DNA of 64,000 nucleotides from Hadesarchaea archaeon (GCA_029259175.1 JAPDJH010000009.1:32001-96000), one strand, 5' to 3'. Positions 1-41,728 are shown, counted from the first letter of the stretch. A program made the numbers and translations. The notes: generated by a model from the sequence alone, not told the origin.

Positions 1-717
1 CTGGAGGAAGTACTCATTCGCGACCAGCAGATCCCATGGGCGTCCGATGTCAGCCCACAGGCTGAGGGGAGAGGTGTAAATCGAGCGCCCGCTCTTTATG
101 AGAATATTCATGGAGTCGGTCAGCTCGTACTCGCCGCGCTTCGAAGGCTTGGTGCGCCTGATGGCGTCGAAGATGGCCGGATGAAAGATGTAGACCCCAG
201 CGTTTGCGGTTCGGCTCCTGATCCGCCTCGGCTTCTCGACGAGCTTGACGACCTTGCCGTCGCGCACCGTGACTATGCCGAACTGCTCGGGCTGGTCGAC
301 CTCGATGACCGCCATGAGGCCGCCGAAATCCCCATTGTCTTTGACCTCCCCGTAACGCTTGAGAAAGATATCGAGAGACTCCTGGTCGAAGAGGGTGTCG
401 CCGTTGACCACCAGCGCGTGCTCTCCACCGACGAACTCCTCGGCGAGGGAAAGAGCGTCGGCGGTTCCACGCAGCTCCTTCTGTTCAAGGTAAGTGAGGT
501 GGAGCTCCATCTGCGAACCATCACCATAGCGCTCGATTATCTGCTCCTTGCCGAAACCGACGACGAGCGCGATCTCGCGGATTCCGGCGTTTTTAAGCAA
601 CAAAAGCACGTGGTCTAGGGCTGGCTTACCGGCAACGGGCAGAAGGAACTTGGGCTTGGTGAAGGTGAGGGGCCGCATTCGGGTTCCGAGGCCTGCGGCT
701 AAGACCACCGCTTTCAC
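1..717 (-). CDS. glmU: Sugar-1-phosphate nucleotidyltransferase (archaeal bifunctional GlmU-like), 3' end runs off the window
   Basis: Manual translation from GTG at 717: MKAVVLAAGLGTRMRPLT..KPK..PVAGKP, VEKP, GEYELTD, WADIGRPWDLLVANE. Not in the ORF track because it is truncated. Confidence 0.8.
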   Translation of the reverse strand, partial: MKAVVLAAGLGTRMRPLTFTKPKFLLPVAGKPALDHVLLLLKNAGIREIALVVGFGKEQIIERYGDGSQMELHLTYLEQKELRGTADALSLAEEFVGGEHALVVNGDTLFDQESLDIFLKRYGEVKDNGDFGGLMAVIEVDQPEQFGIVTVRDGKVVKLVEKPRRIRSRTANAGVYIFHPAIFDAIRRTKPSKRGEYELTDSMNILIKSGRSIYTSPLSLWADIGRPWDLLVANEYFLQ

Positions 718-776
718 GGATGTGCACCAAAAGGAATTGAAGGGGCTGTCTAATAAGGATGACCAGGCGAGCGAGG

Positions 777-889
777 TTGAAAAATTTTTCAAGTGCTCCA
801 TTGAAAATCGTTTCAACAAGGAGGTTAAAGAAAATTCAACGAATTAATGGATTTTTTCTCAAAAAACGCTTTTATAAGCGCTTTTTTGA
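777..889. promoter_or_regulatory. Tandem palindromic operators plus an inverted repeat around the TATA box in a divergent promoter region
   Basis: TTGAAAAATTTTTCAA (777-792, perfect palindrome); TTGAAAATCGTTTCAA (801-816); TCAAAAAACGCTTTTATAAGCGCTTTTTTGA (859-889) centred on TTTATAA. Confidence 0.6.
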
Positions 890-906
890 CCAAAAATGGT
901 GCACAC

Positions 907-2334
907 GTGTTCAGAACAATTGCAAAGATCTGGATTCTGGGGCTGATCTTGGCTTCGAGCGCCCTGCCCGCAGGCGGACAGCTCGAACGGAAGAACGTGG
1001 CGTTCGTTCAGGAGTTCGAGGGCTTCAAGCTCGTCGGACAGGTCGTGGATTCCGAAACAGGTGCGCCCATTCAGAGCGCGCTGATCAAGGCGGTGTTCAG
1101 CAACGGGCGAAAAGCGCTGAGCAGGAGCGACGCCCAGGGTCGGTTCGCGGTGGGCGTATGGGGAGAAGGGGAGACCTCGTACAGGTTGGAGATCTCGGCC
1201 CGGGGGTACGACTCCAAGACGACGGAGGGGAGAGTAGTACTACACACGGCCGGAACGCACGATGTGGGCCAAATCGGACTTCACTACCATCCCTTCGACC
1301 TCTCGCTCTCGGAGCAGAGCAGATCCCTGAGCAGGGAGCAGGGAGAGTCTTGGCCCAGCGTCGAGCTCACGGTCACCCTGGAGAACCGGAACGGGTACGA
1401 CAACGCAGTCGAGCTCGGGGTTGAGGCCCCGGAGGGCATCGAAGCTGAGTTCGAAAACGCCAGGCTGCGCTTCCGCTCCCCTGTCTCGACCGTGCTCACG
1501 CTGACTCCCGGGAGCGCGCTGAGCTCGGGAACCTACACGGTGACGGTTAAGGCGTGCGACGCGTGGGGCAGGCTCGCGGCCAGCGCCTCATGCACGCTCA
1601 CGCTCAGCACCCAAACCAAGCAAACGACCACGACGGGCGGATCCGGTGGCGGGTCGGGCTCCGGCGGCGGGTCGGACAGCTCCCCTCTGGTCATCAAGGT
1701 CGTGGACGCCGCGACCGGGAGCGGGATCTCGGGGGCGAGCGTGGTCCTGAAGCGGCAGGGGACGACCGAGGTGGTCGCGAGCGGGACGACCGGGCCGGAC
1801 GGGACGGTGGAGTTCACCCCGCCGCGCGTGTGGGTGGACGCGTTCGTGAGCAAGTCCGGGTGGGTGGCGTACAACGCGTCCAGGCAGGCCGTGAGCACCG
1901 TGCACACATACTTCTACGCGGGGAGCGGGACGCGCACCTTCTACCTCTCGAACATCGGGGTGATAACCGGGCTGAAGGCGGAGCACACCACCCTCACCTT
2001 CACCCAAGTGAACGAGACTAAGCAAACCACCCTGACGGTTCAGGGGGACTACTCGAAGTCGGTGGACACGACCTACGACGTGTACTATTACCAAACCTAC
2101 ACCCCGAGGGAGGCGGTCTACCACGTGTGGACCAAACCGACCTCGGTCTCGGGCTCCGGGCAGTCCTACACGTTCAAGGGGAAGTGTCTGGTCTGGCAGC
2201 CCCCGACGGGAATCAACTTCCACCCGGGGGCGCACGGGTCCAGGCGCGTGGCGTGGAACTACTGGGGGTCGAGCTGGGCCGGCGAGCCGGGGGCGCAGAC
2301 GACGGTGACGCTGAGGCAGAAGGAAGGATACTAA
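907..2334 (+). CDS. Secreted/surface protein with two carboxypeptidase-regulatory (Cna-B-like) beta-sandwich domains and a Thr/Gly/Ser linker
   Basis: Signal-peptide-like N-terminus from GTG 907; GQVVDSETGAPIQSA and KVVDAATGSGISGASV repeats; TTTTGGSGGGSGSGGGS linker. Confidence 0.65.
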   Translation: MFRTIAKIWILGLILASSALPAGGQLERKNVAFVQEFEGFKLVGQVVDSETGAPIQSALIKAVFSNGRKALSRSDAQGRFAVGVWGEGETSYRLEISARGYDSKTTEGRVVLHTAGTHDVGQIGLHYHPFDLSLSEQSRSLSREQGESWPSVELTVTLENRNGYDNAVELGVEAPEGIEAEFENARLRFRSPVSTVLTLTPGSALSSGTYTVTVKACDAWGRLAASASCTLTLSTQTKQTTTTGGSGGGSGSGGGSDSSPLVIKVVDAATGSGISGASVVLKRQGTTEVVASGTTGPDGTVEFTPPRVWVDAFVSKSGWVAYNASRQAVSTVHTYFYAGSGTRTFYLSNIGVITGLKAEHTTLTFTQVNETKQTTLTVQGDYSKSVDTTYDVYYYQTYTPREAVYHVWTKPTSVSGSGQSYTFKGKCLVWQPPTGINFHPGAHGSRRVAWNYWGSSWAGEPGAQTTVTLRQKEGY

Positions 2335-3545
2335 ACCATTCGGTCAACAAATGTGTAACCATTGAGTGGAACATTCTCAAATTCTTCGTAAAATTTCTCG
2401 ATTAAATTCCAAGATTCATTGTCAAATTCACTAAGCTGAATCAAAACTTTAGTTGCGCCAATTCGTCCGGCTCCTGGTCCACCATGGGCTATGAGCGGAC
2501 TCCCGTTCTCCTCCGGCTTCAGCGGGCGCACCCAGCGGTTCTCGCTCGGGATCCACCCGTAGCCCTCCGTCGCGTAGTCCCCGATCCGCACCTGGTTCTC
2601 GTTCTCCTCCGGGGCCAGGAAAACCCCCTCCAGCACCACGGTCTCGCCGGGCTCCAAGGAACCGAGCGGGTGCCCCTCCTCGTCCAAGGTCGAAATCAGG
2701 GCTTTCGCCATTATGTTCTCGTCCTGGTATGGCTCCTCGACTGTCTTGAAGCGCAGAAACCTGGTTCCCTGTGTAATGACCCAGCGCCCGTTCTCGAACC
2801 GCTTTTCCAAGACTGTCTCATCTCCGCGCTCGATAGCAAGCCTCAACCATACCAGTCTGCTGTAGCGGTTGTTGCCGAGTTCGTTCGGATAGGTGGCCCA
2901 AACGGATGGACGCTCCCAGTAGAGAACGAGCGCCACTTCGTTTTCCTCGAGCCGGTACTCATACGCGTCCTCGTCGTACCAAGCCACGAACTCCCAGCGC
3001 TCCCCAGAGTAGACCTCCCGGAGGTGCTCCGCCTCCTCCGTGCCTTTAACTTTCCAACTCCACATCTGACTTCCCGGCCCAAACCTGTTGTCTGGAATTC
3101 CAACTGAGTAGTACCCAACGTGGGGCCAAGGGAGGTCGAGTTCAAGGCCGCTCAGCACCGGGTCCCCCTCCTCGCCCGCGTACGTGAACGCGCTCACGAA
3201 GTGGAAGGGCACCCAGCCCTCGGGGACGTTCTCGGGGGCGGAGACGGGGGCCGGCTCCCAGCCCGGGATCCCTGCTCCCGCGCTCCACCACACCCAGAGC
3301 GCACCCGCGAGCGCGCACGCCGTCGCGACCGCCGCGCTCCGCTTCGGAGTTCCCGGGCCGAACCCCGCGCTCGCAAACCAGGCGATTCCCAGGACGGCCG
3401 CGGCCTGGGCCCACCGCGGGAGCTCCCCGAACCCCGGGACGAGCGGGAGGAGGAAAAAGGCCGCGAGCCCGGCGACCGCGAAGATCACCGCCACCAAGAA
3501 CACAGCCGCGACGCGCCAGTTCACGGCAGACCCCTCCTCAACCAC
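2331..3545 (-). CDS. Hypothetical membrane protein (3 N-terminal TM segments, large soluble domain)
   Basis: 404-aa ORF with hydrophobic N-terminal segments; stop overlaps the convergent gene. Confidence 0.6.
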   Translation of the reverse strand: MVEEGSAVNWRVAAVFLVAVIFAVAGLAAFFLLPLVPGFGELPRWAQAAAVLGIAWFASAGFGPGTPKRSAAVATACALAGALWVWWSAGAGIPGWEPAPVSAPENVPEGWVPFHFVSAFTYAGEEGDPVLSGLELDLPWPHVGYYSVGIPDNRFGPGSQMWSWKVKGTEEAEHLREVYSGERWEFVAWYDEDAYEYRLEENEVALVLYWERPSVWATYPNELGNNRYSRLVWLRLAIERGDETVLEKRFENGRWVITQGTRFLRFKTVEEPYQDENIMAKALISTLDEEGHPLGSLEPGETVVLEGVFLAPEENENQVRIGDYATEGYGWIPSENRWVRPLKPEENGSPLIAHGGPGAGRIGATKVLIQLSEFDNESWNLIEKFYEEFENVPLNGYTFVDRMV

Positions 3546-4630
3546 TCTCTGAAGAAAACGTCGTGTATCCTGCCCTCATCAAGCACCCCTTTGTGCTCAA
3601 GCGATTTAACCACGCGCTGTACGTGGGACTGCGTTTTCAGCCCGTACCGCTCCACGAAATCGCTGGAGAAAATCGATACGCCCTCTTCCGCCGCAAGCCC
3701 CCTCAAAAATCTCCGCTGGAGCGGCGTCAGGTGATCCATCAGGTCCAAGTAGTTCTTCTGCTCGTGTGCTATGATCCTGTCGACGGCTTCCCGCACCTGA
3801 GACTCGCCCGTAACCTTTCTCGAGCTGAACCAGAGCTCGTAGCAGAGCTGCTGGGTGTAGTACGGGTGGCCGCCCGTCAAATCCAGTATGGCGTCCAGCG
3901 CCTCATCGCTTATCCGCCCGCCGGTCTTCTCGAACTTGTTGGCGATGAACTGCTTGAACTCCTGCCTGGGGATGGGGCCGAGCTCCATGGGCTTGCTGAA
4001 CCTGTAGAAAGGCCTGCTCTCATCACTGAACATGCGTGTCAGGATGTGACGCTTGCTCCCCATGAACACGTACGTGACGTTTCTGTGGCGCTGGAACTTC
4101 GACCTCATCAGCTTCTCGATAGCAGTCCCATTCAGATCGGACACGTCTTGGAATTCGTCGAACGCGAGCACCATGCGTCTGCCCTTCTTGCCCGCGAAGC
4201 TCTCTGCGAAATCGAGGGCTTCCCCGAGTTCCTCGTCGGTAATGTCTCTGGCCATCTCGAGCTTGACGTTCCCTTCCGGCGTGAAAACCACGCTGACCCT
4301 CAGACTCTTGAAGAACCCGGGCAGCTCGAGCACTGCCCTCTTTAACCTGTCCAGTTTGGTGTAGGCCGAGTTCACGATCGTCTCGATGATCCTTGTGGCC
4401 AGCGCGCGTTTTGAGTCCACGGCCGACACGTCAACCCGGGCGTGGTAGACATCCTTTCCCAACCGCGAGAACAGTTCCTCGACCAGCGAGCTCTTCCCCA
4501 TCAGCCGCGGTGAGTAGAGAACCACGCTTTTTCCAGACAGCAGGTCGCGTTTCAGCTCCTCGAGTTCCCGCTTCCGGTTGACAAAGTTCGCCCCCGTAAC
4601 AATGGGCCCGTAAACGAACGGATTCCTCAT
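3521..4630 (-). CDS. Archaeal ATPase (ATPase_2 / AAA family) with C-terminal wHTH
   Basis: NPFVYG..FVNRKREL, Walker A PRLMGKSS, Walker B LAFDEFQ, TGGHPYY. Confidence 0.85.
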   Translation of the reverse strand: MRNPFVYGPIVTGANFVNRKRELEELKRDLLSGKSVVLYSPRLMGKSSLVEELFSRLGKDVYHARVDVSAVDSKRALATRIIETIVNSAYTKLDRLKRAVLELPGFFKSLRVSVVFTPEGNVKLEMARDITDEELGEALDFAESFAGKKGRRMVLAFDEFQDVSDLNGTAIEKLMRSKFQRHRNVTYVFMGSKRHILTRMFSDESRPFYRFSKPMELGPIPRQEFKQFIANKFEKTGGRISDEALDAILDLTGGHPYYTQQLCYELWFSSRKVTGESQVREAVDRIIAHEQKNYLDLMDHLTPLQRRFLRGLAAEEGVSIFSSDFVERYGLKTQSHVQRVVKSLEHKGVLDEGRIHDVFFREWLRRGLP

Positions 4631-4632
4631 TT

Positions 4633-4681
4633 TATACACTTCTGTATAATACGGATGTGTATAGGAATATTTATACTTTTT
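4633..4681 (-). promoter_or_regulatory. TATA box and 31-bp imperfect palindrome upstream of the ATPase
   Basis: TATACACTTCTGTA-TAA-TACGGATGTGTATA (12 of 14 arm positions match); minus-strand AAAAAGTATAAATA. Confidence 0.55.
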
Positions 4682-4960
4682 GGTCTAGTGGTCGTCTTGC
4701 GCCTCCAAAAGCTGGACCAACTCGAGAAGTTCTACGAGCGGCCAAATCCGGTGGGCGGTATCATAGCTGAGAGGAACCCGCGGTCTCAATAACCGGAAAG
4801 GTTTTGCACGCGCCCTCCATCCCCGCCAACAAAGCGCCCGCGCCTGCCAAGTGGTCAGAACAGCAGAAAGGAGCTTTGATCCTGACCGTCACCCTAGAGA
4901 ACCACAACGGGTGCGACTACTAGCCAAAACCGCCGACTCTTCAGCCGGAACGGTGCCGCA

Positions 4961-6310
4961 TCACTTCTTTTTTACCACACTCTCCACCACGCCCGCCGCC
5001 CTGCGCAGCAATTCTTTCGCACCCGCCTCGTCTTCGGCTTCGGCGGTTACCCTGATATACGGCTCCGTGCCCGAGGGCCTGACGAGCACCCATCCGCTCT
5101 CAGCATCAACCCGCACGCCGTCCGCCGTCGAAATCTCCCCCTTCGCCTCCCGCGGCAGGAGCTCCTCAACCTTTCGCATGACCTCTCCTTTTCGCTCGTT
5201 CGGGCACGCGATCTTTTCCCTCAGCGTCACATAGTCGGGCAGCTCGTCGACCAGCTCAGATAGCTTGCGCCCCGTCGACTCCAGCAGCTCCACCACCTTC
5301 AGAGCGGCGAGCGGGCCATCGGGCGCCAGATGAACCTCCGGAAAGATCCACGAACCGCTGGGCTCGCCTCCGAACACCGCCCTGTGCTCGACCACCGCCT
5401 GCGCCACTGCCACGTCACCAACCCGAACGCGAACAACGCGGCCTCCCCGCTCCTCGACCGCGTCTTCCACGACCCTCGAGGCGTCGACCGTGGTAACCAC
5501 CACGTCGCCCGGCTTTTTAACCTGAAAAGCGGCCATCAAAGCCAGCAACTTATCGCCCACAAACCTTCCCTTCTCGTCAACGGCACCGATGCGATCGGCA
5601 TCCCCGTCGTGGGCCAGACCCACACCAACTCCCAGCTCCCGCACCGTTTTCGCCAAAACCTGCAAGTTTTTCTCATTCGGCTCCAGCCCACGCGCGGGAA
5701 ACAGCCCATCGGGATTGGAGTTCAACGCGATGACCTTGCACCCTCGCTCCCTCAGCAGCTGCGGAGTGACGACCGACGCCGCCCCATTGCCGCAGTCCAC
5801 CACCACCGTGAGCGTACTCTCGAACCCCACCCTTTCAGCCATAACTTGCTCGTACCGCGAGAGCAAGTCGATTTCTCTACATGTCCCGATCTCGTCCCAG
5901 CCGACCGTCCGCCACCGGCGCCCAAAATAGAGCTCCTCAATCTTCTCCTCCTCAGCCGGTGTGTAGGCCATCCCGTCCCGATTCCAGCATTTCAGGCCGT
6001 TGTACTCAGGGGGATTGTGGGACGCCGTTATCATGGCGCCCGACTTGGCCCCCACGAGCTTCGTCCCCAGCGCGAGGACGGGGGTGGGAACCATGCCTGC
6101 TAGCGCAACATCGCACCCCCCTGACAGCAAGCCAGCTACGAGCGCGTTCTCGAGCACCGGACCGGATAGCCTCGGGTCGCGGCCAACGACCACCGTCCCA
6201 GAATTGCCAAGAACGGTCGCAATAACTCGGCCCAAATCCGCAAACAGCTCTGGCGTGATCTCCTTTCCAAATATCCCCCGAACACCGGACGTTCCGAAAA
6301 GCTTTCCCAC
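4961..6310 (-). CDS. glmM: Phosphoglucosamine mutase / phosphomannomutase
   Basis: LFGTSGVRG, ITASHNPPEYNG, DGDADR, RPSGTEP; start at GTG 6310. Confidence 0.9.
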   Translation of the reverse strand: MGKLFGTSGVRGIFGKEITPELFADLGRVIATVLGNSGTVVVGRDPRLSGPVLENALVAGLLSGGCDVALAGMVPTPVLALGTKLVGAKSGAMITASHNPPEYNGLKCWNRDGMAYTPAEEEKIEELYFGRRWRTVGWDEIGTCREIDLLSRYEQVMAERVGFESTLTVVVDCGNGAASVVTPQLLRERGCKVIALNSNPDGLFPARGLEPNEKNLQVLAKTVRELGVGVGLAHDGDADRIGAVDEKGRFVGDKLLALMAAFQVKKPGDVVVTTVDASRVVEDAVEERGGRVVRVRVGDVAVAQAVVEHRAVFGGEPSGSWIFPEVHLAPDGPLAALKVVELLESTGRKLSELVDELPDYVTLREKIACPNERKGEVMRKVEELLPREAKGEISTADGVRVDAESGWVLVRPSGTEPYIRVTAEAEDEAGAKELLRRAAGVVESVVKKK

Positions 6311-6323
6311 CCACTGGCCTCCT

Positions 6324-6932
6324 TCACGAAGCTGAACCCGGACGGGCAAGCAACTTGCTCTTGTAGACCTCCACTCGCCGAATCGGGTGAAAGCGCTTGG
6401 CCTCCTTGTAGATGTCCGCAGCGAGCTTCCCGAGCACCATCTCCTGTACAAACTGGTCGAAGTTGCGCTCGCGTGCTTTCGCCGTCACGACCTCCCGGAT
6501 GGCCTTGCGTATCTGCTTGACCTTCGAGCTCTGAGCGCGTCCGAGCGTTATCGCCATGGCAGTCACGCGCAGCGTGTACCCGTCTTTCGTGGTCACCGTG
6601 GTTATGTCCTCAGCCTTTCTGCTCCTGCGCCTGATCTGACTCTTCACGTAATCGCGAGCCATTTCGTGCCCAACAAAATCCGTTTTTGCGTTCGTGTCAT
6701 CCACCGTTCTGATTTGAAAGTATAGCTTGATGTGCGACTTGGAAAAGTCGTTTATCAGATCGCCCAGAGTCGTCTCGAAAACCCTCCCGATGAGGTGCTG
6801 AGGATCGGACGCCGGGGTCTCCCCTATAGGGGTATTGCCGAACATGGAGGGCGCCAGCACCTCGTACCATGCCTTCTCACGCCAGCTCTTGACCCTCTTC
6901 CGTCTTTCTGCAGCCGACGCCATCTCAACCAC
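6324..6932 (-). CDS. rps3ae: 30S ribosomal protein S3Ae (eS1)
   Basis: KAWYEVLAP..F, GRVFETTLGDL, IRRVEVYK. Confidence 0.95.
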   Translation of the reverse strand: MVEMASAAERRKRVKSWREKAWYEVLAPSMFGNTPIGETPASDPQHLIGRVFETTLGDLINDFSKSHIKLYFQIRTVDDTNAKTDFVGHEMARDYVKSQIRRRSRKAEDITTVTTKDGYTLRVTAMAITLGRAQSSKVKQIRKAIREVVTAKARERNFDQFVQEMVLGKLAADIYKEAKRFHPIRRVEVYKSKLLARPGSAS

Positions 6933-8415
6933 CCATTTGCCTGATTTTCTGACGGACGAGTTCGGGCCACGCCTCCATTTCCAATCCGTGCTGAGCCAAG
7001 AATCCCACGACCCAGCGGCTCGTCCCGAAACCGCAGCAGCCCGTCCACATCTCTCTCCCCTTCGCTTCCTTAATCTTAAAGCTCTCGGTGAACTTGGTGC
7101 GGTGAACGTTGTAAGAGCCTATCTCGAGCCAATCCTTTTTGTACGGGAGCCAGACCTCGAGATCGTACGTGGCGACTTTGCGCGGGTCTGTGCTCGTCTC
7201 GCGTGTTCCCTCCCGCATGTAGAAGGGGGTCGCTTCCGTGACCCTCCACTCTATCTCCAAGTCATCGAGAATCTCTATACTGTGATCCAACACCTTGCCC
7301 CTCAGCTCCGCCACATCGTCCGGGCTTCCCAGCATCACAAACTCAATACGCCTGAACTCTTGGGTCCGGATCAATCCCTCCACGCCGCCGCCCTCCCAGC
7401 GGTAGGTCCACCCGCTGCGGTCGAACTGTTTGATCGGCGTCTGCTCAAGCGAAACGACCTTCCTCGAGAACTGCTGGTAGAAGGGCTCGCACTGCGCCGG
7501 GGCCAGCACATACGCCGGGTCCTTAAGAACCTTCCTCAGTTCATCCGCAGAAATCCTCTTCATCAGCTTGAGCTGCCGTTTGAAATTCTCAAAGCTCTCT
7601 GGATCGCGGGGCGGCGGAGAAACGTAGTACATGCCCTCCGGAACGCCATCGAGATATCCGGGCATTCGCTGCATCACCTCCAGCGGAATCAGCTTCGGAA
7701 ACATCACCTCCTCGAACCCCAACGGTCTTGCCACGCGCTCGATGATGATCTCCTCCAAAGCGCGAAGCAAAGCAGTATAGGGGTGTAAGTAAATCCACTG
7801 CCCGCGGCCGGGGAACTCCACGATCCAGCCCCGCTTCACTGCCTCCTCGAACGGATCGGTGGTGAACCGGTGCTCCCTGGGTTTGCTTTGCCTCACGACC
7901 ACGATTTCTTCCTTGGCCTGCACAACGGAGGGCTGCAACAGTTGCTCCACTGAGGACACCAGCCGATCGACCATCCGCCCGCGAATATCGGTCTCGGAGA
8001 GATCTGTGAGTCGCAGGATAATCTGGCCACCAGAAATCTCACACCCAAGCTTTCGGAGTTCTGGCTCGACCGATGACGGGATCTCGCCAACCGAAAACAC
8101 TATGGTATAAGTGGGTGCCCCGATCTCCCTCAGACCTATCCGGTGGGCCCGACCGAGCTCGCTGGAAAGGGCCTTGCCAATCCGCAACAGGGCATCGTGG
8201 GCCCGCACGTATCTGCCGGACTCTATCCACACGCGAAGCTTGTTGCCCTCGATCTCCCATCTCCTCAGCCGAGCCGCTTCGTCCTCCTTGCCCTTGGGAG
8301 CGCCCTTCACCAACAGCTGTTTTGAATCTTCGAACACGCTCTTGACACGATCCGCCACGGCCGAGAGATCACGGCTGAAACCGAGCACGCCCTCTAGCTC
8401 AAACTTCACTTCCAC
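6925..8415 (-). CDS. serS: Seryl-tRNA synthetase, methanogenic (type 2)
   Basis: SGRYVRAHDALLR, PAQCEPFY, WTYRWEGGG, EFRRIE, TGCCGFG. Confidence 0.9.
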   Translation of the reverse strand: MEVKFELEGVLGFSRDLSAVADRVKSVFEDSKQLLVKGAPKGKEDEAARLRRWEIEGNKLRVWIESGRYVRAHDALLRIGKALSSELGRAHRIGLREIGAPTYTIVFSVGEIPSSVEPELRKLGCEISGGQIILRLTDLSETDIRGRMVDRLVSSVEQLLQPSVVQAKEEIVVVRQSKPREHRFTTDPFEEAVKRGWIVEFPGRGQWIYLHPYTALLRALEEIIIERVARPLGFEEVMFPKLIPLEVMQRMPGYLDGVPEGMYYVSPPPRDPESFENFKRQLKLMKRISADELRKVLKDPAYVLAPAQCEPFYQQFSRKVVSLEQTPIKQFDRSGWTYRWEGGGVEGLIRTQEFRRIEFVMLGSPDDVAELRGKVLDHSIEILDDLEIEWRVTEATPFYMREGTRETSTDPRKVATYDLEVWLPYKKDWLEIGSYNVHRTKFTESFKIKEAKGREMWTGCCGFGTSRWVVGFLAQHGLEMEAWPELVRQKIRQMGG

Positions 8416-30664: not shown

Positions 30665-30706
30665 AAAAGGCAAAAGTTATAACACCCCTATACTCACCTT
30701 CTAAAG

Positions 30707-31201
30707 ATGAACAAATCGAATGCTGACCAACGCGTGCTCCTCTACGATCCACAGCGTTGTACCGGTTGTCGTTGCTGCGAGATGGCGTGTGCCTATCAGA
30801 ACTTCGGCTCGCTCACGCCAATAAAAAGCCACATCCGGATAATCGCGAGCGAGGATGGAATCCACCGCGATGCCGTGTACTGCTGGCACTGCGAGGAACC
30901 GGTGTGTGCCGCGGCATGTCCGGTGGATGCGATAGAAAAGGACGAGCGCACGGGCTGGGTGCGGGTGAATCCGCTTAAATGCATCGGCTGTCGATCGTGC
31001 ACATATGCATGTCCTGTGGCTGCCGCATGGTTCGATGAAGATCGGCGGACGGCTGCGAAGTGCACCTTCTGTGACGGGGATCCGCTCTGTGCCCGTTTCT
31101 GCTCGCCACAAGCCATACGAGTCGCCACCCGAGCGGAGGCCTCAGCCGCGCTCAAACAAATTCTCGGAGGTGCCGCGAGTGGAGGCGGAACGAGTCCTTA
31201 A
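30707..31201 (+). CDS. 4x[4Fe-4S] electron-transfer protein (HycB/CooF/DmsB-like)
   Basis: CTGCRCCEMAC, CWHCEEPVCAAACP, CIGCRSCTYACP, KCTFC..C..C. Confidence 0.9.
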   Translation: MNKSNADQRVLLYDPQRCTGCRCCEMACAYQNFGSLTPIKSHIRIIASEDGIHRDAVYCWHCEEPVCAAACPVDAIEKDERTGWVRVNPLKCIGCRSCTYACPVAAAWFDEDRRTAAKCTFCDGDPLCARFCSPQAIRVATRAEASAALKQILGGAASGGGTSP

Positions 31202-31823
31202 AGCTGCTGGAGCAATCCAGGTGGTAAAAAAACGTGATCGAAAAGTGGAAGCCGCGATCAGGCCCGACCGTATACGGACGGTTGCAAGCAAGTTGTGTTC
31301 CCATGGCGCACGTTTCATCATCATTGCCGCGGCGGATTCGGGGCTCGATATCGACTTGATCTATCACTTTGATTTGGATGGGCTAGTAGTTGCTGTAAAA
31401 ACGAGAGTGCCTAAAGAGTCCCCAGAAATCGACTCAATAAAGGATATAGTGCCCGGAGCTGAATGGGCTGAGCGCGAAGCTTCAGATCTCTGCGGTGTAC
31501 GCTTCCGCGGGGGCACAAACGAGCCATTGGTTCTTCCCAAAGAGGGTGCTCTGGAGACTCCTCCTCTCACGCGAGCGTTTCGGGTGCTGCCAGCCGAGGT
31601 GGCCCCCGTGGCGGAGTCCATTGCGAGCGTTGGGGCAACAGCCCCGCTGACTTCGCTTATGGAGCGCCGACGCCAAGAGGCAGGACTCGAGGCCAAAGCA
31701 CCCATGGTCTACGCCACCGAAAAGGGGACTAAGGAATTGACAGAACTGATCAAGCAAGCCAGCTTCACCGAGCGCGGAGGGTTCGATCCCGAGCGTAAAA
31801 AGTTGAGAGGTGTGTACAAGTGA
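31179..31823 (+). CDS. NuoC/EchD-like hydrogenase subunit with C-terminal extension
   Basis: LIYHF, DSIKDIVPGAEWAEREASDLCGVRF; GGAGG upstream of GTG 31179. Confidence 0.8.
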   Translation: MEAERVLKAAGAIQVVKKRDRKVEAAIRPDRIRTVASKLCSHGARFIIIAAADSGLDIDLIYHFDLDGLVVAVKTRVPKESPEIDSIKDIVPGAEWAEREASDLCGVRFRGGTNEPLVLPKEGALETPPLTRAFRVLPAEVAPVAESIASVGATAPLTSLMERRRQEAGLEAKAPMVYATEKGTKELTELIKQASFTERGGFDPERKKLRGVYK

Positions 31824-32689
31824 AGGAGTACGCTGTCTACTGGGGCTGCATGATTCCTCATCGTCTGCCCTCGATAGAAATCGCGGCCAGATATGTGCTC
31901 GAAAAGCTTGGTGTTCGGGTGCGCGAGGTTGAAAACTACACTTGTTGCCCGGATCCGATCATTGGGCGATTTATCGATAGAAAAACTGCCCTGACACTTT
32001 CTGCACGCAATCTAGCACTGGCCGAAGAACTGGGTCCAGAACTTCTAGTTCTCTGTAATGGGTGCTTCGAGACACTGATCGAAGCCGTAGAGGCTCTGCA
32101 CGATGAAAACACGCGCACTGAAATTAACCAAATCCTAGAAAAAGTTGGCAGGAAATACCAAGGAGCTATACAAGTCCGCCACGTGGTAGAAGTGCTGCAC
32201 GACGATGTTGGGCTAAACCGGATAAAAGAGGTCGTTCAGAAGCCATCGAGGGTCAAGCTCGCCGTCCACTACGGATGTCACCTTTTCCGCGAACCCAATG
32301 GTGGGGACATCTGGAGGAAACCAAAACAATTCGAAGAGCTCCTGCGTGTGATCGGAGGCAATCCAGTACTGTGTGACCACAACAGGCTGTGCTGCGGTTT
32401 TCCGACGTCACATGTGGATCCGGAGTATTCGTTGCGCATGAATCTGTTGCCTAAGATGCGGTGCTACAAACAACTAAAAATAGAAGCTGTGGTTACTGTG
32501 TGTCCAGCATGCACCATTCAGATGGAAACTGGACAGCGCATGCTCCGCAAGTTTGGCTTGGAGACCTCCGTTCCGATAGTTCACTTGATGGAGCTCATGG
32601 CACTTGCTTTTGGAATGAGGCCCCAAGAGCTTTCGCTCAAGGTTCACCGCAGCCCCGTCGAGGATTTTGCTAGGAGGGTGTTCGGATGA
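31820..32689 (+). CDS. hdrB: Heterodisulfide reductase subunit B
   Basis: Two CCG domains: YWGC, TCCPDP, CNGC, HYGCH, LCCG, CPAC. Confidence 0.9.
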   Translation: MKEYAVYWGCMIPHRLPSIEIAARYVLEKLGVRVREVENYTCCPDPIIGRFIDRKTALTLSARNLALAEELGPELLVLCNGCFETLIEAVEALHDENTRTEINQILEKVGRKYQGAIQVRHVVEVLHDDVGLNRIKEVVQKPSRVKLAVHYGCHLFREPNGGDIWRKPKQFEELLRVIGGNPVLCDHNRLCCGFPTSHVDPEYSLRMNLLPKMRCYKQLKIEAVVTVCPACTIQMETGQRMLRKFGLETSVPIVHLMELMALAFGMRPQELSLKVHRSPVEDFARRVFG

Positions 32690-33819
32690 GCGAAATCGCG
32701 CGCTACGGTCCATATCATCCCATCCACCTTGAGCCGGAGGTCTACGAGGTTCATGTTCGCGAAGGCAGGATTTCGGATGTACGTATCGAGCAGGGCTTCA
32801 CTCACCGGGGGATTGAGCGCCTTCTAGAGCAGCAGTCAGTGAAGCACGGGGTTCTCTTGGCAGAACGGGTCTGCGGATTGTGCTCTCAGGCCCATGCGGA
32901 GGCCTACTGCACTGCGGTGGAAAACACGCTCAAAATCGAGCCGCCGGAGCGTGCGGCACATATTCGAACGCTTGCTTTCGAGCTCGATCGAATCCATAGC
33001 CACCTCATGTGGTTCGTGCTTTTGTTTCACTCCGTGCGCGACACTGAGGCATTAACCGTGGTGCTGAACCGGCGAGAACGGCTGATGGATCTAATCGAAT
33101 CGCTGTTCGGGAATCGGGTTCACTTCTCCATCAACACTCCGGGTGGGGTAAAACGTGACTTGCCCGCAGATGCGGATCAGCTTGTGCGCCGAACGATGGA
33201 GCACGTGCGCAATCTCGCAGATTTCGTGAAAAACAAGGTAGAAGCGCACTCGCAACGACTGAGTGGAATCGGTGTATTGCCAAAAGAGAAAGCTAGAGCT
33301 TACGGGGTTGTAGGACCTGTGCTCCGCGGGTCGGGGATCGCCAGCGACATAAGGCGGGACGATCCGTATCTGATCTATGACGAATTGGAGTTTGACATCC
33401 CGACGGAGGACTCCTGTGACGTACTGGGACGAACGCGTGTGCGGGTTGCCGAGCTCTACGAGTCCATCCGGATAGTTGAGCAGACCGTGAAAAGAATGCC
33501 GGTAGGCGAACTCTCGGTGGAGTTCCCATTCCCGTTGACCAATGAGGACTGCGGGCGAGTGGAGGCTCCCCGTGGAGAGCTCATCTACTTCGCGCGGCTG
33601 AGGGGGACCAGCTTTCCGGATCGTGTGAAGCTCAGACCGCCCACCTATGTCAACGACCCAGCCGTCGCCGAGATGCTCAAAGGAGAACCACTTGAAAATC
33701 TGCCGCTAGTCCTCGAGAGCATCGACCGCTGCATTTCATGCACTAATCGCGTGACAGTAATTGATGAACAAAACGGGCATGTCAAAAAAATCTCGCTGGA
33801 GGATCTGGTGCGATGGTAG
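32686..33819 (+). CDS. Group 4 NiFe hydrogenase large subunit
   Basis: GPYHP, HRGIE, L1 ERVCGLC, EAPRGE, L2 DRCISCTNR plus C-terminal extension. Confidence 0.9.
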   Translation: MSEIARYGPYHPIHLEPEVYEVHVREGRISDVRIEQGFTHRGIERLLEQQSVKHGVLLAERVCGLCSQAHAEAYCTAVENTLKIEPPERAAHIRTLAFELDRIHSHLMWFVLLFHSVRDTEALTVVLNRRERLMDLIESLFGNRVHFSINTPGGVKRDLPADADQLVRRTMEHVRNLADFVKNKVEAHSQRLSGIGVLPKEKARAYGVVGPVLRGSGIASDIRRDDPYLIYDELEFDIPTEDSCDVLGRTRVRVAELYESIRIVEQTVKRMPVGELSVEFPFPLTNEDCGRVEAPRGELIYFARLRGTSFPDRVKLRPPTYVNDPAVAEMLKGEPLENLPLVLESIDRCISCTNRVTVIDEQNGHVKKISLEDLVRW

Positions 33820-34670
33820 ATGAGCTCCGAGTATATCGGTTCAACGCGGGGTCGTGCAACGGTTGTGATATTGAGGTCGTCAGTGCTCTAGCGGAGCACT
33901 ACGGTCTTCAAAACGTCCGGGTGGTAGAAGAGGTGGAAGAGGCAAACACCATGGTAGTTGTGGGTGTCGTAACGACGAAGACCGAGTCCCATCTGAGAGC
34001 AGCTTATGAAAAACTCCAAGATCCCAAGCTCGTTATTGCCGTGGGGACGTGTGCCGTTTCGAGTGGAGTGTTCGATGGCTCCTACAGTGTCCGGAATCCG
34101 CCTGAGACATACATCCCAGTGAGAGCATATCTAAACGGGTGCCCCCCTAGCCCTCACTCGATCGTCTCAGCTCTCCGCGCCCTTATGGCCCGCCAAGACT
34201 CCGAGTGGACAGCGCCCAAGGGCTACAGGGGATTGCCGGTGGTCGATGCCGAGAAATGCACCGCGTGCGGAGCTTGCGCTATCGCCTGTCCCGCTAGCGC
34301 TATCGAAATCGAAGAAGCCGACGAAGGCAAAATCGTGCGCTACTTGCACGATCGCTGCATCAGTTGTGCCACCTGCGAGCTCGTGTGTCCGGAGGACGCG
34401 GTGAGGCTGAAGGAAGAGCGTCATCCGCTGGTGGCGGAACGAGAAAAAGCTAGGGTGGAAACGAAGTTCACAACGGTGCAGTGCCCGGTGTGTGGTAGTG
34501 GGCACATAACGGAACGGCATCTGGACGTGATTGTTGAACGGCTGAAAGAAAAAGAGGCGCTGAAAGCCGCTGCTCAGGAACTGCGCGAGCGATCGAAGCT
34601 CGAGAGGACTTGCAAGATAAGGCAGTTGGCTGTGGGCAAGCAATTGCTTTTTAAGCTCGGCTATGGATAA
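33813..34670 (+). CDS. Hydrogenase small subunit (NuoB-like) fused to a 2x[4Fe-4S] NuoI-like domain
   Basis: GSCNGCDIE, GTCA, GCPP; CTACGACAIACP, CISCATCELVCP. Confidence 0.9.
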   Translation: MVDELRVYRFNAGSCNGCDIEVVSALAEHYGLQNVRVVEEVEEANTMVVVGVVTTKTESHLRAAYEKLQDPKLVIAVGTCAVSSGVFDGSYSVRNPPETYIPVRAYLNGCPPSPHSIVSALRALMARQDSEWTAPKGYRGLPVVDAEKCTACGACAIACPASAIEIEEADEGKIVRYLHDRCISCATCELVCPEDAVRLKEERHPLVAEREKARVETKFTTVQCPVCGSGHITERHLDVIVERLKEKEALKAAAQELRERSKLERTCKIRQLAVGKQLLFKLGYG

Positions 34671-34699: not shown

Positions 34700-35731
34700 A
34701 TGGCTCTCAAAACCGCTCGATCGCTTTTCGATCTTGTTGGAAATACTCCTCTTATCCGGATCAACAAGATACCCGAGCGCTGGGGGTTCGGAGATCTGGA
34801 ACTCTACGGTAAGGCCGAGTTCATGAACCCCTCGGGTAGTCTCAAAGATCGTATCATCGCCAAAATCCTTTCGCAGGCAATGAAGGACGGCAGGTTGAAA
34901 CCGGGGATGACCATAGTGGAGAGCACGACGGGAAATACTGGGATCTCCACTGCCATGTTCGGTGCCCACCTGGGGCTGAAAGTCATGATTGTGATTCCGG
35001 CGGGCATGAGCGCTGAGCGGATGAAGACGTTGAAGGCCTTTGGGGCTGAAATCGTTCACGTTCCGGGAGGGGAATCGGATGTGGACTTGGCTGTGGAAAA
35101 GGCACGGGAGATCGCGAGGTCCGATCCGGATCGCTACTTTTTCGTTGACCAGTTCAACAATCCGGCCAACGCGGAGGCTCACTACGAAACCACGGGGCCG
35201 GAGATATGGGAGCAAATGGGGGGTAGGATAGATGCTTTCGTTGCGACCGCGGGGACCGGGGGAACCATCACGGGGGTCGGGAGGTATCTGAAGGAGCGGA
35301 ACCCGCGCGTCAAGGTCTATGTCGCTGAGCCGGCCGAGTGCCCGCTGCTTTCCAAGCAGCGCTGGGGCAGCCACAGGATTGAAGGTATCGGGGACGGTTT
35401 CATTCCGTCGATTCTGGATCTCTCCGTTCTGGACGGGGTCATCACGGTGTCGTCCGATGAGGCGATCGAGATGACCCAGCAGCTGATCCGGGAGGAAGGG
35501 CTTTTCGTCGGGATCTCGAGCGGGGCCAATGTCAAGTGCTGTTTGAAGCTCCACCGGCGGCACCCTGAGCTCAGGCGGGTTGTGACCATGCTCAACGACC
35601 ACGCGTTCAGGTACTTCTCCACGCGGCTTTTCGGTGTGAGAAAGGAGCTGAAGGTCCCGGAGCGGCCCCATCCGATCAGCGTCACCCCCGAACAGCGAAG
35701 ACATCTCTCGCGGCTGGAAATCATCGAGTAA
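34700..35731 (+). CDS. cysK: PLP-dependent cysteine synthase family protein
   Basis: VGNTPL, NPSGSLKDR, TTGNTG, GTGGT, IEGIG, GISSGA. Confidence 0.85.
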   Translation: MALKTARSLFDLVGNTPLIRINKIPERWGFGDLELYGKAEFMNPSGSLKDRIIAKILSQAMKDGRLKPGMTIVESTTGNTGISTAMFGAHLGLKVMIVIPAGMSAERMKTLKAFGAEIVHVPGGESDVDLAVEKAREIARSDPDRYFFVDQFNNPANAEAHYETTGPEIWEQMGGRIDAFVATAGTGGTITGVGRYLKERNPRVKVYVAEPAECPLLSKQRWGSHRIEGIGDGFIPSILDLSVLDGVITVSSDEAIEMTQQLIREEGLFVGISSGANVKCCLKLHRRHPELRRVVTMLNDHAFRYFSTRLFGVRKELKVPERPHPISVTPEQRRHLSRLEIIE

Positions 35732-38003: not shown

Positions 38004-38234
38004 TTACAACTTCTCCAACAGCTCAAAGAACCTCTCTCGGGTAAGCTCCGCCTCCCGGATTATCGCCCGCACGAGCGCTGGCTTGATCTCCCTATCCGGA
38101 TGGACCGGGATAACGGTACGCACGTTCTCTTTCATCAGGATAACGTGGGGACCCTTCCTCCTAACAATTCGAAATCCTTCATGGATCAATATCTTGATGA
38201 GCTTCTCAGCTGGAACAGGCCCGATTTTAGGCAT
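38004..38234 (-). CDS. hicA: HicA-family toxin
   Basis: 76 aa, GFRIVRRKGPHVIL, TVIPVH, AIIREAEL. Confidence 0.85.
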   Translation of the reverse strand: MPKIGPVPAEKLIKILIHEGFRIVRRKGPHVILMKENVRTVIPVHPDREIKPALVRAIIREAELTRERFFELLEKL

Positions 38235-38466
38235 GAACCTCTACTTTTTGTAATCCAACAACTGACTGCGCCATTTTGAGAACTTCTGATTTCTCCTCTT
38301 CATCAAGGGTTTCCAAGTAGAGTTCGATTGCCTCCTCAACATTTTTCATCAACTCTTCGAGCGTTTCGCCTTGCGTGTGGCACCCTGGCAGGGAAGGAAC
38401 AAACGCCACGTAACCGCCCGTCTCATCCTTTTGAACCACTACATCGAACATCAATCTCTTGGCCAT
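38227..38466 (-). CDS. hicB: HicB-family antitoxin
   Basis: GGYVAFVPSLPGCHTQGETLEE..NVEEAIELYL. Confidence 0.9.
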   Translation of the reverse strand: MAKRLMFDVVVQKDETGGYVAFVPSLPGCHTQGETLEELMKNVEEAIELYLETLDEEEKSEVLKMAQSVVGLQKVEVHA

Positions 38467-38573
38467 GTCTTTCCCAACCACTCTATGTAAACCAGAGTAT
38501 AAAATCTATGGGAAGTTCCAGCACGAGCAATCGTCCGTGTTTGACAAGCAGTAGGGAATAGACAAGAGGAATC

Positions 38574-38613
38574 TCTGTCCTTCCTCTTTCATTAAGACCA
38601 CCGGCGGCTCCAC
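38574..38613 (+). repeat. Cassette boundary repeat R1 (arm plus tRNA-Thr 3' end)
   Basis: TCTGTCCTTCCTCTTTCATTAAGA-CCACCGGCGGCTCCAC. Confidence 0.85.
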
Positions 38614-38656
38614 GAACACAGTAAATTATTTAAATTTTGAAACAATTGTTTTAAAT

Positions 38657-39205
38657 ATGAAACATCTAGACGAAAAGGCTTTGAAGGTGCTCACCTACTT
38701 CTTTGAGAACCCGCGAGAAGAAGTTTACCTGCGGGAACTGGCACGCCGGCTACGGATGAGCCCAGCAACTGTTATGCGAGCCCTACGTCTCCTCATTAGA
38801 GAAGGCTTGATAACCAAGCGCCCGGAGAAGCACGCCACCTATTTCAAGGCCAACCTTAACCCATACTTCAGAGAGTTGAAGAAAGCGCATACGGTTTCCA
38901 AAGTCTTGCGCTCCGGAATTCTTGAACTCATCAACGAGAAATCGGTAGGTCTAAGTTCAATACTGCTCTACGGGAGCGCCGCTAAAGGCGAAGACGATCG
39001 GGGAAGCGACTACGACTTTCTGGTGATTGCCGCAAGATGCGCCCTGAGAAGCAGTGAACTCTCGAAACTTCTAGGGAGAGAGGCCACCCTACAGGTCTTC
39101 GACGTGGCGGGCTGGAAACGAGTAGCAAAGCGAAACCGAGCATTCTACCTAGACGTTATAAGCAATTCCATTGTCCTTTATGGTGGAAAGCCGGTGATCG
39201 ATTGA
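38657..39205 (+). CDS. wHTH + minimal nucleotidyltransferase (MNT) antitoxin
   Basis: YLRELARRLRMSPATV HTH; LYGSAAKG...SDYDFLV. Confidence 0.85.
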   Translation: MKHLDEKALKVLTYFFENPREEVYLRELARRLRMSPATVMRALRLLIREGLITKRPEKHATYFKANLNPYFRELKKAHTVSKVLRSGILELINEKSVGLSSILLYGSAAKGEDDRGSDYDFLVIAARCALRSSELSKLLGREATLQVFDVAGWKRVAKRNRAFYLDVISNSIVLYGGKPVID

Positions 39206-39642
39206 CGCTTAGGGATTGTCTTGCGCAAAGGAAGTTGCGCAGGATACGGCCGGATCCGCTCAAAGCCCGCAAATCGCTGGAAGCTGCGTCTGCAAAACTG
39301 AAAAAGGCCAAGGAACTCCTCGCCGATGAGCATTACGATGCAACCCTTCTGTACGCGTACACGAGCATGTTCAGCTCGGGAAGAGCTCTCCTTTACAAGG
39401 ACGGCATCCAAGAGAAATCCCACTACTGTTTGGCTAGGTATCTAGAGGAGAGGTACGTGAAGAGAGGAAAGTTGAATCCAAAGATCATCACCTTCCTCGA
39501 CTCTTTCCGTGAGGAGCGGCACGCGATAATGTATGGGTTCGAGGAGGTTGAAATCCGGCGCGAAGAGGCTGAGGAAGCCATCTCGGTTGCGGAAGAATTC
39601 CTTGGGAGAGCTAAAGAACTCGTGGGTAAGCGTACGCGCTGA
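39202..39642 (+). CDS. HEPN-domain toxin
   Basis: AYTSMFSSGRALL, KSH, REERHAIMY; start overlaps the MNT stop. Confidence 0.85.
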   Translation: MTLRDCLAQRKLRRIRPDPLKARKSLEAASAKLKKAKELLADEHYDATLLYAYTSMFSSGRALLYKDGIQEKSHYCLARYLEERYVKRGKLNPKIITFLDSFREERHAIMYGFEEVEIRREEAEEAISVAEEFLGRAKELVGKRTR

Positions 39643-41057: not shown

Positions 41058-41309
41058 ATGAAAGGAAGCGTGGTAAAAATTACCTCAAAAGGACAACTTA
41101 CCCTCCCCGTGGAAATCCGGAGAGAGTTAGGGGTTAGGAAAGACGATTATCTTTACGTCACAAGAGCTGGTGAGCTAATTCTGATGAAGCGGATCGGAGT
41201 GAATCCTAAGGAAATTTTAGATACCTTTCAGCAAGTCGCAAAGGAGAGCGGGCTGACGAGAAAAGAACTAAACCGGGTCATCCGCGAGATCAGGCGGGCA
41301 AAAGAATGA
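41058..41309 (+). CDS. AbrB/MazE-family antitoxin
   Basis: KITSKGQLTLPVEIRRELG. Confidence 0.9.
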   Translation: MKGSVVKITSKGQLTLPVEIRRELGVRKDDYLYVTRAGELILMKRIGVNPKEILDTFQQVAKESGLTRKELNRVIREIRRAKE

Positions 41310-41728
41310 ATAAAAAGCCAAGAGTTTTCTTGGACACGAACGTTTTGATATCGGGAATGGTATTCAGAGGAAACGAGAGGAAACTGCTGGACGCGATTAT
41401 TGATAACCGATTGAAACTGGTAATAAGCGACGATGTTTTGAACGAAACAGAAATGGTCTTCAGGAAAAAATTCCCGCAGCACCGTGTTCTTTTCCCGTTA
41501 TTTTTGCAGCTCGTGAAGCACGAAAGAATACCGAGAAAAGCGTATAGAAAAGCCGAAAAGACATATTCTGGACTCCTCCGTGACAAAACAGACGCCCACA
41601 TCCTTGCGGCCGCTGTCGTGGGCAAGTGCGATTATCTAATTGCCGGCGACAAAGAACTCCTTTCCCTGAAGAAAGTTGGTCTCACAAAAATAATTCAAAC
41701 GTGGGAGTTGCTGAGAGAATTGAAATAA
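41306..41728 (+). CDS. vapC: PIN-domain (VapC) toxin
   Basis: FLDTNVLIS, E, DKTDAHIL, GDKELL. Confidence 0.9.
   Translation: MNKKPRVFLDTNVLISGMVFRGNERKLLDAIIDNRLKLVISDDVLNETEMVFRKKFPQHRVLFPLFLQLVKHERIPRKAYRKAEKTYSGLLRDKTDAHILAAAVVGKCDYLIAGDKELLSLKKVGLTKIIQTWELLRELK

Follow-up and report, generated by a model that had tools for sequence, protein, structure and literature searches.

A stretch of 64,000 nucleotides from a Hadesarchaea archaeon (GCA_029259175.1 JAPDJH010000009.1:32001-96000), called the window below, carries at positions 30707-34670 five overlapping genes on the plus strand. They encode a HycB-like ferredoxin, a NuoC-like subunit, HdrB, the large subunit of a group 4 [NiFe]-hydrogenase and a NuoB-NuoI fusion protein. 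The cluster neither contains nor adjoins a gene for a membrane subunit, and its NuoC-like protein ends in a part of HdrC, a fusion that is newly noted here. Judged from the sequence, the five gene products probably form a cytoplasmic, anchor-free complex of the HdrB branch of group 4, which would act as a soluble, non-bifurcating H2:disulfide oxidoreductase. An earlier reading of this DNA, made from the sequence alone (the sequence-only reading), was right on the anatomy of the cluster and probably also on its chemistry.

Catalytic and electron-transferring subunits

Domain calls on the five proteins were made with Pfam and NCBIfam scans, and for every gene they agreed with the assignment in the sequence-only reading. 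The product of the large-subunit gene (32686-33819, plus strand) matched Complex1_49kDa (PF00346, E 7e-58) and NiFeSe_Hases (PF00374, E 9e-16). It contains both ligand motifs, RVCGLCSQAH (C63, C66) and DRCISCTNR (C349, C352), the second followed by a tail of 22 residues. These cysteines had been described as intact, and they were kept in nine of nine aligned orthologues, in all 16 sequences of a second alignment and in the large subunit of the Mbh that the same genome encodes. The closest solved proteins in a profile search were HycE (7z0s_E, 8e-63) and MbhL (6cfw_L, 7e-59). The cluster therefore encodes the catalytic module of group 4: a NuoD/HycE-type large subunit with both CxxC nickel-iron pairs, a NuoB-like small subunit with four cysteines, and NuoC-like and NuoI-like subunits, NuoB and NuoI being fused.

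The fusion gene (33813-34670, plus strand) encodes 285 amino acids, an Oxidored_q6 domain followed by a HycF/NuoI-like part with two [4Fe-4S] motifs. The NuoB part comprises residues 15-124 with cysteines C15, C18, C80 and C110; the NuoI part has eight cysteines, with Fer4 motifs at residues 142-198 and a HycF-type match (PRK12387) at residues 135-273. MbhJ (6cfw_J, 8e-23) and HycF (7z0s_F, 1e-14) were its solved matches, and the same fusion is present in the other Hadarchaeal loci and in most metagenome loci.

The HycB/DmsB-type ferredoxin gene (30707-31201, plus strand) encodes 164 amino acids matching Pfam Fer4_11 (E 1.3e-13). The 16 cysteines of this protein are arranged in four CxxCxxCxxxC-like motifs, which gives room for four [4Fe-4S] clusters; in 23 sequences 14 of the 16 were invariant and the other two nearly so. 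Its nearest solved relatives by profile were the Fe-S subunits of tungsten aldehyde oxidoreductases (8c0z_C, 1e-34; 6x6u_B, 6x1o_B), with HycB (7z0s_B, E 4e-22) behind them. For maturation, the genome encodes HypC, HypD and one HycI protease outside the cluster.

A second group of genes without membrane genes lies on contig C3 (locus L004, 9010-11390, minus strand) and encodes NuoB, a NuoC-NuoD fusion of 517 amino acids and NuoI. The large-subunit part of the fusion has lost the nickel-iron cysteines (RICVLEPYSY; DPCPSDMDR), and in the tree described below the protein groups with two Heimdallarchaeota loci (support 99).

HdrB and the HdrC-like tail of the NuoC-like subunit

The hdrB gene (31820-32689, plus strand; 289 amino acids) is the only one in the genome with CCG domains (E 8e-22). 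Its two domains contain five cysteines each in C...CC...CxxC sets, and all ten (C10, C42, C43, C79, C82, C153, C191, C192, C228, C231) were invariant in 28 of 28 sequences. A profile of the subunit matched the whole length of 5odc_B, a solved HdrB, with E 1.3e-84, while the next structure followed at 1e-4. The HdrB model TIGR03288 gave 252 bits, below its curated equivalog cut-off of 345. The subunit is proposed as the disulfide/dithiol site of the complex.

The NuoC-like protein (31179-31823, plus strand; 214 amino acids; Complex1_30kDa, E 7e-17) has about 75 additional residues at its C-terminus (about 31596-31820), a tail that is absent from the NuoC of the genome's own Mbh. Positions 84-142 of the 144 positions of the HdrC model TIGR03290 matched 10 of 11 NuoC proteins scanned, with a best E value of 1.2e-6; the ten were the cluster proteins, without exception, and the eleventh was the Mbh NuoC. 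A profile of the tail only matched residues 121-183 of the 184 residues of the solved HdrC 5odc_C (E 1.7e-8), followed by 8rvu_c, 8rvv_C and 9sfi_E; the next, unrelated match had an E value of 0.8. The tail region has residues that are invariant in 25 of 25 sequences, one membrane-bound relative included. Nothing of HdrC but this C-terminal part is represented in the fusion with NuoC; the two-cluster ferredoxin domain is absent. Of the earlier statement that there is no HdrC, the part on a free protein stands, as none was found in this genome (90.9% complete), but the statement fails for the C-terminal part.

In the solved complex this part of HdrC lies on HdrB, and the tail is likely to hold HdrB on the hydrogenase. 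A complex prediction with the ferredoxin, the NuoC-like subunit and HdrB, HdrB being the partner, spoke neither for nor against binding: its score was unspecific, because a control with a replaced NuoC also scored high. A word-based search with the NuoC fusion returned 17 close matches only and was uninformative on the breadth of its distribution. The fusion offers a testable docking mechanism as well as a sequence marker for the whole family.

Absence of a membrane arm and of bifurcation partners

The genome of the window (G000, in which the window is C5:32001-96000) comprises 1.31 Mb on 23 contigs, and the source names of close homologues assign it to the Hadarchaeales. In a 19-residue Kyte-Doolittle scan with a threshold of 1.6 none of the five cluster proteins contained a membrane-like segment, the maximum being 1.48; the MbhM and MbhH proteins of the same genome had 10 and 20 stretches at or above the threshold, some of them overlapping. 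No NuoH- or antiporter-domain gene was found adjoining the cluster, which is flanked by genes for TatD and a PALP enzyme. This agrees with the sequence-only reading, and the cluster accordingly lacks both the anchor and the antiporter-like subunit of membrane-bound group 4 enzymes and the membrane association printed for the HdrB-linked complexes Drh, Ehd, Ehe and Ehg. Orphan membrane subunits, which that reading had considered, were not found in the genome either. Its only matches to PF00146 (NuoH) and PF00361 (antiporter-like), one each, lie together in an Mbh/Mrp-type operon on contig C9 that is complete, with its own NuoB, NuoC, large subunit and NuoI.

Among the 15 Hadarchaeota genomes that hold the cluster, four (83-92% complete) had no PF00146 match, and the same four had no second large-subunit match at E 1e-60 or better. 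In all ten of the other holders with a placed NuoH gene, this gene directly adjoined that of an Mbh-type large subunit.

Neither MvhD nor a group 3 large subunit nor McrA was found in the genome of the window, and the HdrA model matched only short ferredoxin-like stretches with at most 37 bits, in line with the earlier statement that HdrA is absent. Compared with HdrABC and its hydrogenase, HdrB is thus present with its two CCG motifs, while HdrA, MvhD and the group 3c hydrogenase are missing. Formate hydrogenlyase (group 4a) does not fit either, as the cluster contains no formate dehydrogenase partner and no HycC or HycD. Since HdrA, MvhD, a group 3 hydrogenase and McrA were not found, both bifurcation and the methanogenic heterodisulfide as substrate are unlikely.

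Conservation and phylogeny

Orthologues of the large subunit were defined by at least 50% identity, with a clear gap to the Mbh-type paralogues at 35-44%. They were found in 14 of 66 Hadarchaeota genomes. In each of the 14, hdrB lies directly upstream of the large-subunit gene; the conservation of hdrB in homologous operons, which the sequence-only reading had left to a synteny search, is thereby confirmed. The order ferredoxin, NuoC, HdrB, large subunit, NuoB-NuoI was seen wherever the contig allowed. Three of the 14 clusters are irregular, one being spread over two contigs, one cut and one interrupted by a TnpB-like insertion; in a fifteenth genome, where the contig is cut, the first three genes are present. 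The insertion (locus L105, G006:C11) is 1.5 kb long and splits an otherwise intact cluster between the large-subunit and NuoB-NuoI genes; its translation resembles transposon proteins of the TnpB type and seems to include a zinc-finger motif.

When metagenomes were scanned with the alignment of large subunits, 80 loci were obtained, 23 of which carry hdrB on the same locus. Ten of these have the full five-gene order, nine are cut but consistent with it, one has NuoB-NuoI first, and three are membrane-bound. The other 56 loci with enough sequence looked like ordinary Mbh- or Nuo-type operons. The membrane-bound loci L164 and L168 encode, in order, an antiporter-like subunit, NuoC with the tail, HdrB, the large subunit and NuoH. 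L168 continues with NuoI and NuoB and has HycI two genes on, while the contig of L164 ends soon after the large subunit; the third such locus, L179, has a GcvH gene added. The large subunit of L168 is 81% identical to proteins named Nezhaarchaeota. A single-protein scan of genome contigs with the large subunit of the window found NuoD-level relatives only (29-39% identity).

A quick maximum-likelihood tree was calculated from 76 large subunits, for which NuoD-like rows of 357-359 residues were thinned to one in four. The membrane-free hdrB-linked large subunits formed one clade of 32 rows with an SH-aLRT support of 100, and the three loci with hdrB, NuoH and an antiporter-like subunit were its sister group, with a joint support of 94.

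Other arrangements of Hdr and hydrogenase genes were also noted among the Hadarchaeota. Family f2 (e.g. locus L116, G025:C2:219000-236000) has two ordinary HdrC-HdrB pairs and an HdrD-like protein, encoded next to GlcD-like, ETF and thiolase genes. None of its six genomes has an orthologue of the window large subunit or a NuoH, a distribution complementary to that of the hydrogenase-linked HdrB. Genome G003, from the same genus as the window, has neither the HdrB-hydrogenase cluster nor NuoH; it encodes a [NiFe] large subunit of another type (C3:83657-84802, 436 amino acids) that matches both ends of PF00374.

Relation to known systems

Drh was reportedly first described by Lyu and Lu in 2015, according to papers that cite them. 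To judge from the portions of the literature available, genome-based proposals that HdrB-linked group 4 hydrogenases connect H2 directly with disulfides go back to 2015; the enzymes are still treated as predictions, for which experiments are called for. In the available portion of Kohtz et al. (2022; PMC9723716), HdrB-interacting group 4 [NiFe]-hydrogenases are given for Methanocellales (Drh), Methanomethylicia (Ehd), Culexarchaeia (Ehe) and Nezhaarchaeia (Ehg), and for all four a link between H2 and the reduction of disulfides is proposed. The genes listed there number 8 for Drh, 9 for Ehd, 13 for Ehg and 15 for Ehe. The complexes are treated as membrane-bound, Drh being said to lack the antiporter subunit only; the Ehe cluster contains gcvH, and relatives named in the same text have additional modules, SdhA, CdhA and FdhF among them. 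Of the other sources available in part, Liu et al. (2018; PMC6046458) term Drh 'putative membrane-associated', a 2025 paper (PMC12700198) reports expression of Ehg in cultivated Methanonezhaarchaeia, and PMC8407382 mentions hdrB2 inside an 'fpo' operon of one Bathyarchaeia family.

The sequence-only reading had called the architecture one of an unrecognised kind. This has to be withdrawn, as HdrB-interacting group 4 hydrogenases had already been printed in the text of PMC9723716 cited above. The gene set is another matter: the complexes described in that text have 8-15 genes and are membrane-bound, and the five membrane-free genes of the window are therefore a variant and not the same set. Neither the soluble form with five genes nor the fusion of NuoC with HdrC was found described in a literature search that extended neither to the original Drh paper nor to the gene-map figure of PMC9723716. 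The five-gene form was absent from the available portions of PMC11291895, PMC9635834, PMC9585477, PMC9723716, PMC6046458, PMC12700198 and PMC8407382, and the passages on HdrB-linked hydrogenases in PMC9723716, PMC6046458 and PMC12700198 do not mention the Hadarchaeota.

The window cluster shares with Drh, Ehd, Ehe and Ehg the hdrB gene inside a group 4 cluster and the proposed direct H2-linked reduction of a disulfide, and in the quick tree (joint support 94) its large subunit groups with the metagenome loci of the type with HdrB and membrane subunits (L164, L168). It differs from them in having five genes, no membrane subunit, the NuoB-NuoI fusion and a host that is not a methanogen. Drh, Ehd and Ehe were compared by description, none of their sequences being in the tree. 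With the MvhAGD-HdrABC complex (5odc, 8rvu, 9sfi) it has in common an HdrB that is homologous over its entire length and keeps each of the ten cluster cysteines, the C-terminal region of HdrC, retained as the tail of NuoC, and the link between H2 and a disulfide. However, the window cluster has a group 4 hydrogenase and lacks HdrA, MvhD, the ferredoxin domain of HdrC and the group 3c hydrogenase, so that flavin-based bifurcation would not be possible. Mbh of Pyrococcus furiosus (6cfw) and formate hydrogenlyase of E. coli (7z0s) have a homologous large subunit with the same type of C-terminal tail, NuoB-, NuoC- and NuoI/HycF-like modules and a HycB-like ferredoxin. In contrast to these, the window cluster has no MbhM/HycD (NuoH-like) subunit, no antiporter-like subunits and no adjoining formate dehydrogenase; it adds HdrB, fuses NuoB to NuoI and bears the HdrC tail on NuoC.

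The forms with HdrB described in the available texts all include membrane subunits, and the window cluster is a membrane-free variant of them. For expression, assays and cryo-EM, a naturally soluble enzyme of five subunits that retains all its cofactor sites would be much more tractable. Work on it could show which disulfide is used outside methanogens, in which direction the enzyme runs and by what route HdrB is connected to a complex-I-like module. The cluster also illustrates clearly how a peripheral arm of the complex-I type can exist without a membrane arm.

Proposed mechanism and alternatives

From these genes we infer a physical assembly, an electron path, an activity with its direction and a substrate. 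H2 would be cleaved at the NiFe site in the large subunit. From there the electrons would move first to the [4Fe-4S] cluster in the NuoB domain, then to the pair of clusters in the NuoI domain fused to it, and probably onward through the four clusters of the HycB-like ferredoxin. Their end point would be HdrB with its two cysteine-rich cluster sites, at which a disulfide R-S-S-R' would be reduced to two thiols; the HdrC-like tail of the NuoC-like subunit likely keeps HdrB attached to the hydrogenase. As there is neither an HdrA flavoprotein nor an ion-translocating arm, the reaction would involve neither bifurcation nor energy conservation. The substrate would not in any obvious way be CoM-S-S-CoB, since McrA was not found. 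Such an enzyme would equilibrate H2 with a thiol/disulfide pool, its direction being set by the H2 pressure and by the potential of the couple. The standard potentials are about -414 mV for H2, about -140 mV for CoM-S-S-CoB and about -290 mV for lipoamide, so that an uncoupled enzyme would be most plausible if its couple had a low potential or if it served as a reversible valve.

It is conceivable, though we advance it only tentatively, that the clade arose from an Ehd/Ehg-like ancestor that shed its ion-translocating arm and became a minimal soluble enzyme of five subunits. The clade occurs in the Hadarchaeales and at least three further metagenome lineages, source names pointing to Bathyarchaeia for one relative. 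HdrC would have been split in the process, the tail that would clamp HdrB being fused to NuoC and the Fe-S domain being replaced by the HycB-like four-cluster wire. In these non-methanogens H2 would be coupled to a disulfide other than CoM-S-S-CoB, e.g. a protein-bound lipoyl or persulfide carrier. If this is true, these fermenters would possess a thiol-based H2 valve.

Several points weigh against the soluble H2:disulfide oxidoreductase. With a genome that is 90.9% complete, genes that were not found may still exist. The tree is quick and was made without bootstrap and without named HydDB, Drh, Ehd or Ehe references, and its support of 94 is not starred. Uncoupled electron transfer from H2 to a disulfide would waste much free energy if the potential of the acceptor resembled that of CoM-S-S-CoB, which makes such an acceptor, or the uptake direction, physiologically odd. 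The role of the HycB-like subunit as a wire to HdrB is drawn by analogy with HycB in formate hydrogenlyase. With 252 bits against a cut-off of 345, HdrB is a relative rather than a certified CoB-CoM enzyme, and CCG proteins also work in non-disulfide enzymes, whose models (SdhE, GlpC, GlcF, LdhH) match it.

The same complex could run in reverse, as an H2-evolving sink that oxidises a dithiol, e.g. a dihydrolipoyl carrier protein or a low-potential thiol pair from amino-acid fermentation, at low H2 pressure. We regard this as rather unlikely, although its closest solved relatives, Mbh and formate hydrogenlyase, are H2 producers. Lipoyl genes occur near some clusters. A GcvH gene (L179, 8167-8604) lies directly 3' of a membrane-bound HdrB-hydrogenase cluster, Lpd-like and lipoyl-synthase-like genes flank the soluble cluster L144 (6128-8936), and gcvH is part of the Ehe cluster in the available text of Kohtz et al. 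(2022; PMC9723716). The neighbours in L179 and L144 hint at a lipoyl-protein substrate in some lineages, and the genome of the window has a gcvH-gcvPA-gcvPB operon. However, gcvH never adjoins the Hadarchaeal cluster and is only weakly tied to it (13 of 15 holders vs 33 of 51 other Hadarchaeota), and an Lpd-like gene (Pyr_redox_dim) is already present in this genome and in 59 of the 66, so that there is no gap to fill. Lipoyl groups or GcvH as the substrate in the Hadarchaeota were rejected, as neither gcvH nor Lpd-like genes showed a strong association with the cluster. In formate hydrogenlyase, HycB joins a second enzyme to the hydrogenase. With this precedent, the HycB-like subunit could be a dock or entry point for ferredoxin or a partner oxidoreductase, in a hub that passes low-potential electrons to protons or to HdrB; the enzyme would then reduce disulfides at the expense of ferredoxin or a substrate and release H2 as overflow. 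The resemblance of the ferredoxin to the tungsten aldehyde oxidoreductase subunits, ahead of HycB, would fit such a hub, as would the SdhA, CdhA and FdhF modules of the relatives named in the text of PMC9723716. It is nevertheless improbable, as a partner oxidoreductase gene was conserved beside the cluster in none of 19 loci compared and the five genes are enough for a closed path from H2 to HdrB.

A different chemistry of the CCG subunit has still less in its favour than such a hub. Quinone- or fumarate-linked, hydroxy-acid or persulfide/polysulfide reactions would agree with the matches of the subunit to SdhE-type (126 bits), LdhH, TfrB, GlcF and GlpC models and with the unreached HdrB cut-off, but the match to solved HdrB stands far above that to the next structure, the ten cluster cysteines are all kept, and the HdrC tail is kept alongside. 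Docking of the soluble module on a membrane arm encoded elsewhere, either the Mbh/Mrp arm or an unrecognised anchor, would allow energy conservation as in Ehd and Ehg. The nearest relatives in the tree are membrane-bound, and the genome of the window and nine other cluster-holders also own an Mbh operon. The Mbh operon of the window genome, however, has its own NuoB, NuoC, large subunit and NuoI, and the four holders without a NuoH match are the same four that had no second large-subunit match. In addition, NuoB and NuoI are fused, and a membrane gene lay beside the large subunit in none of 30 loci labelled membrane-free, many of them on short contigs; docking of this kind is thus very improbable.

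Operon layout and neighbouring genes

Each of the five reading frames overlaps the next, the last three overlaps measuring 4, 4 and 7 nt, which suggests one translationally coupled unit. The most likely start of the NuoC-like gene is the GTG at 31179, which has a GGAGG in front of it and gives an overlap of 23 nt with the ferredoxin gene; an alternative start of this frame lies at 31005. About 29 nt 5' of the first ATG there is an A/T-rich BRE/TATA-like box, CAAAAGTTATAA (30671-30682, plus strand), whose position would fit a leaderless or near-leaderless operon transcript. A/T-rich boxes, in two forms, also precede the first gene in orthologous loci. A scan of the region for sigma-70 promoters and terminators was uninformative for an archaeon. 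Metatranscriptome contigs from libraries X8 and X9 covered parts of four of the five genes plus flanking genes at a depth of 2-4, which is not proof of transcription.

A cysteine-synthase-like PALP gene (34700-35731, plus strand) begins 30 nt past the stop codon of the operon on the same strand. It was rejected as an operon member because it adjoined the cluster in none of 17 related loci compared, and so was the upstream TatD gene, present in only one of the 17. The recurrent neighbours across the compared loci were housekeeping genes. Further downstream, the region 38004-39642 of the window contains small gene pairs typical of toxin-antitoxin modules. Among them are an overlapping pair of 76 and 84 amino acids on the minus strand, which we take to be HicA/HicB-like, and a gene for a helix-turn-helix protein followed by one for a HEPN-domain protein; a PIN-domain protein is encoded at 41306-41728. 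The first 8,000 nt of the window (1-8000) have a G+C content of 0.59-0.61, compared with 0.46-0.58 across the remainder.

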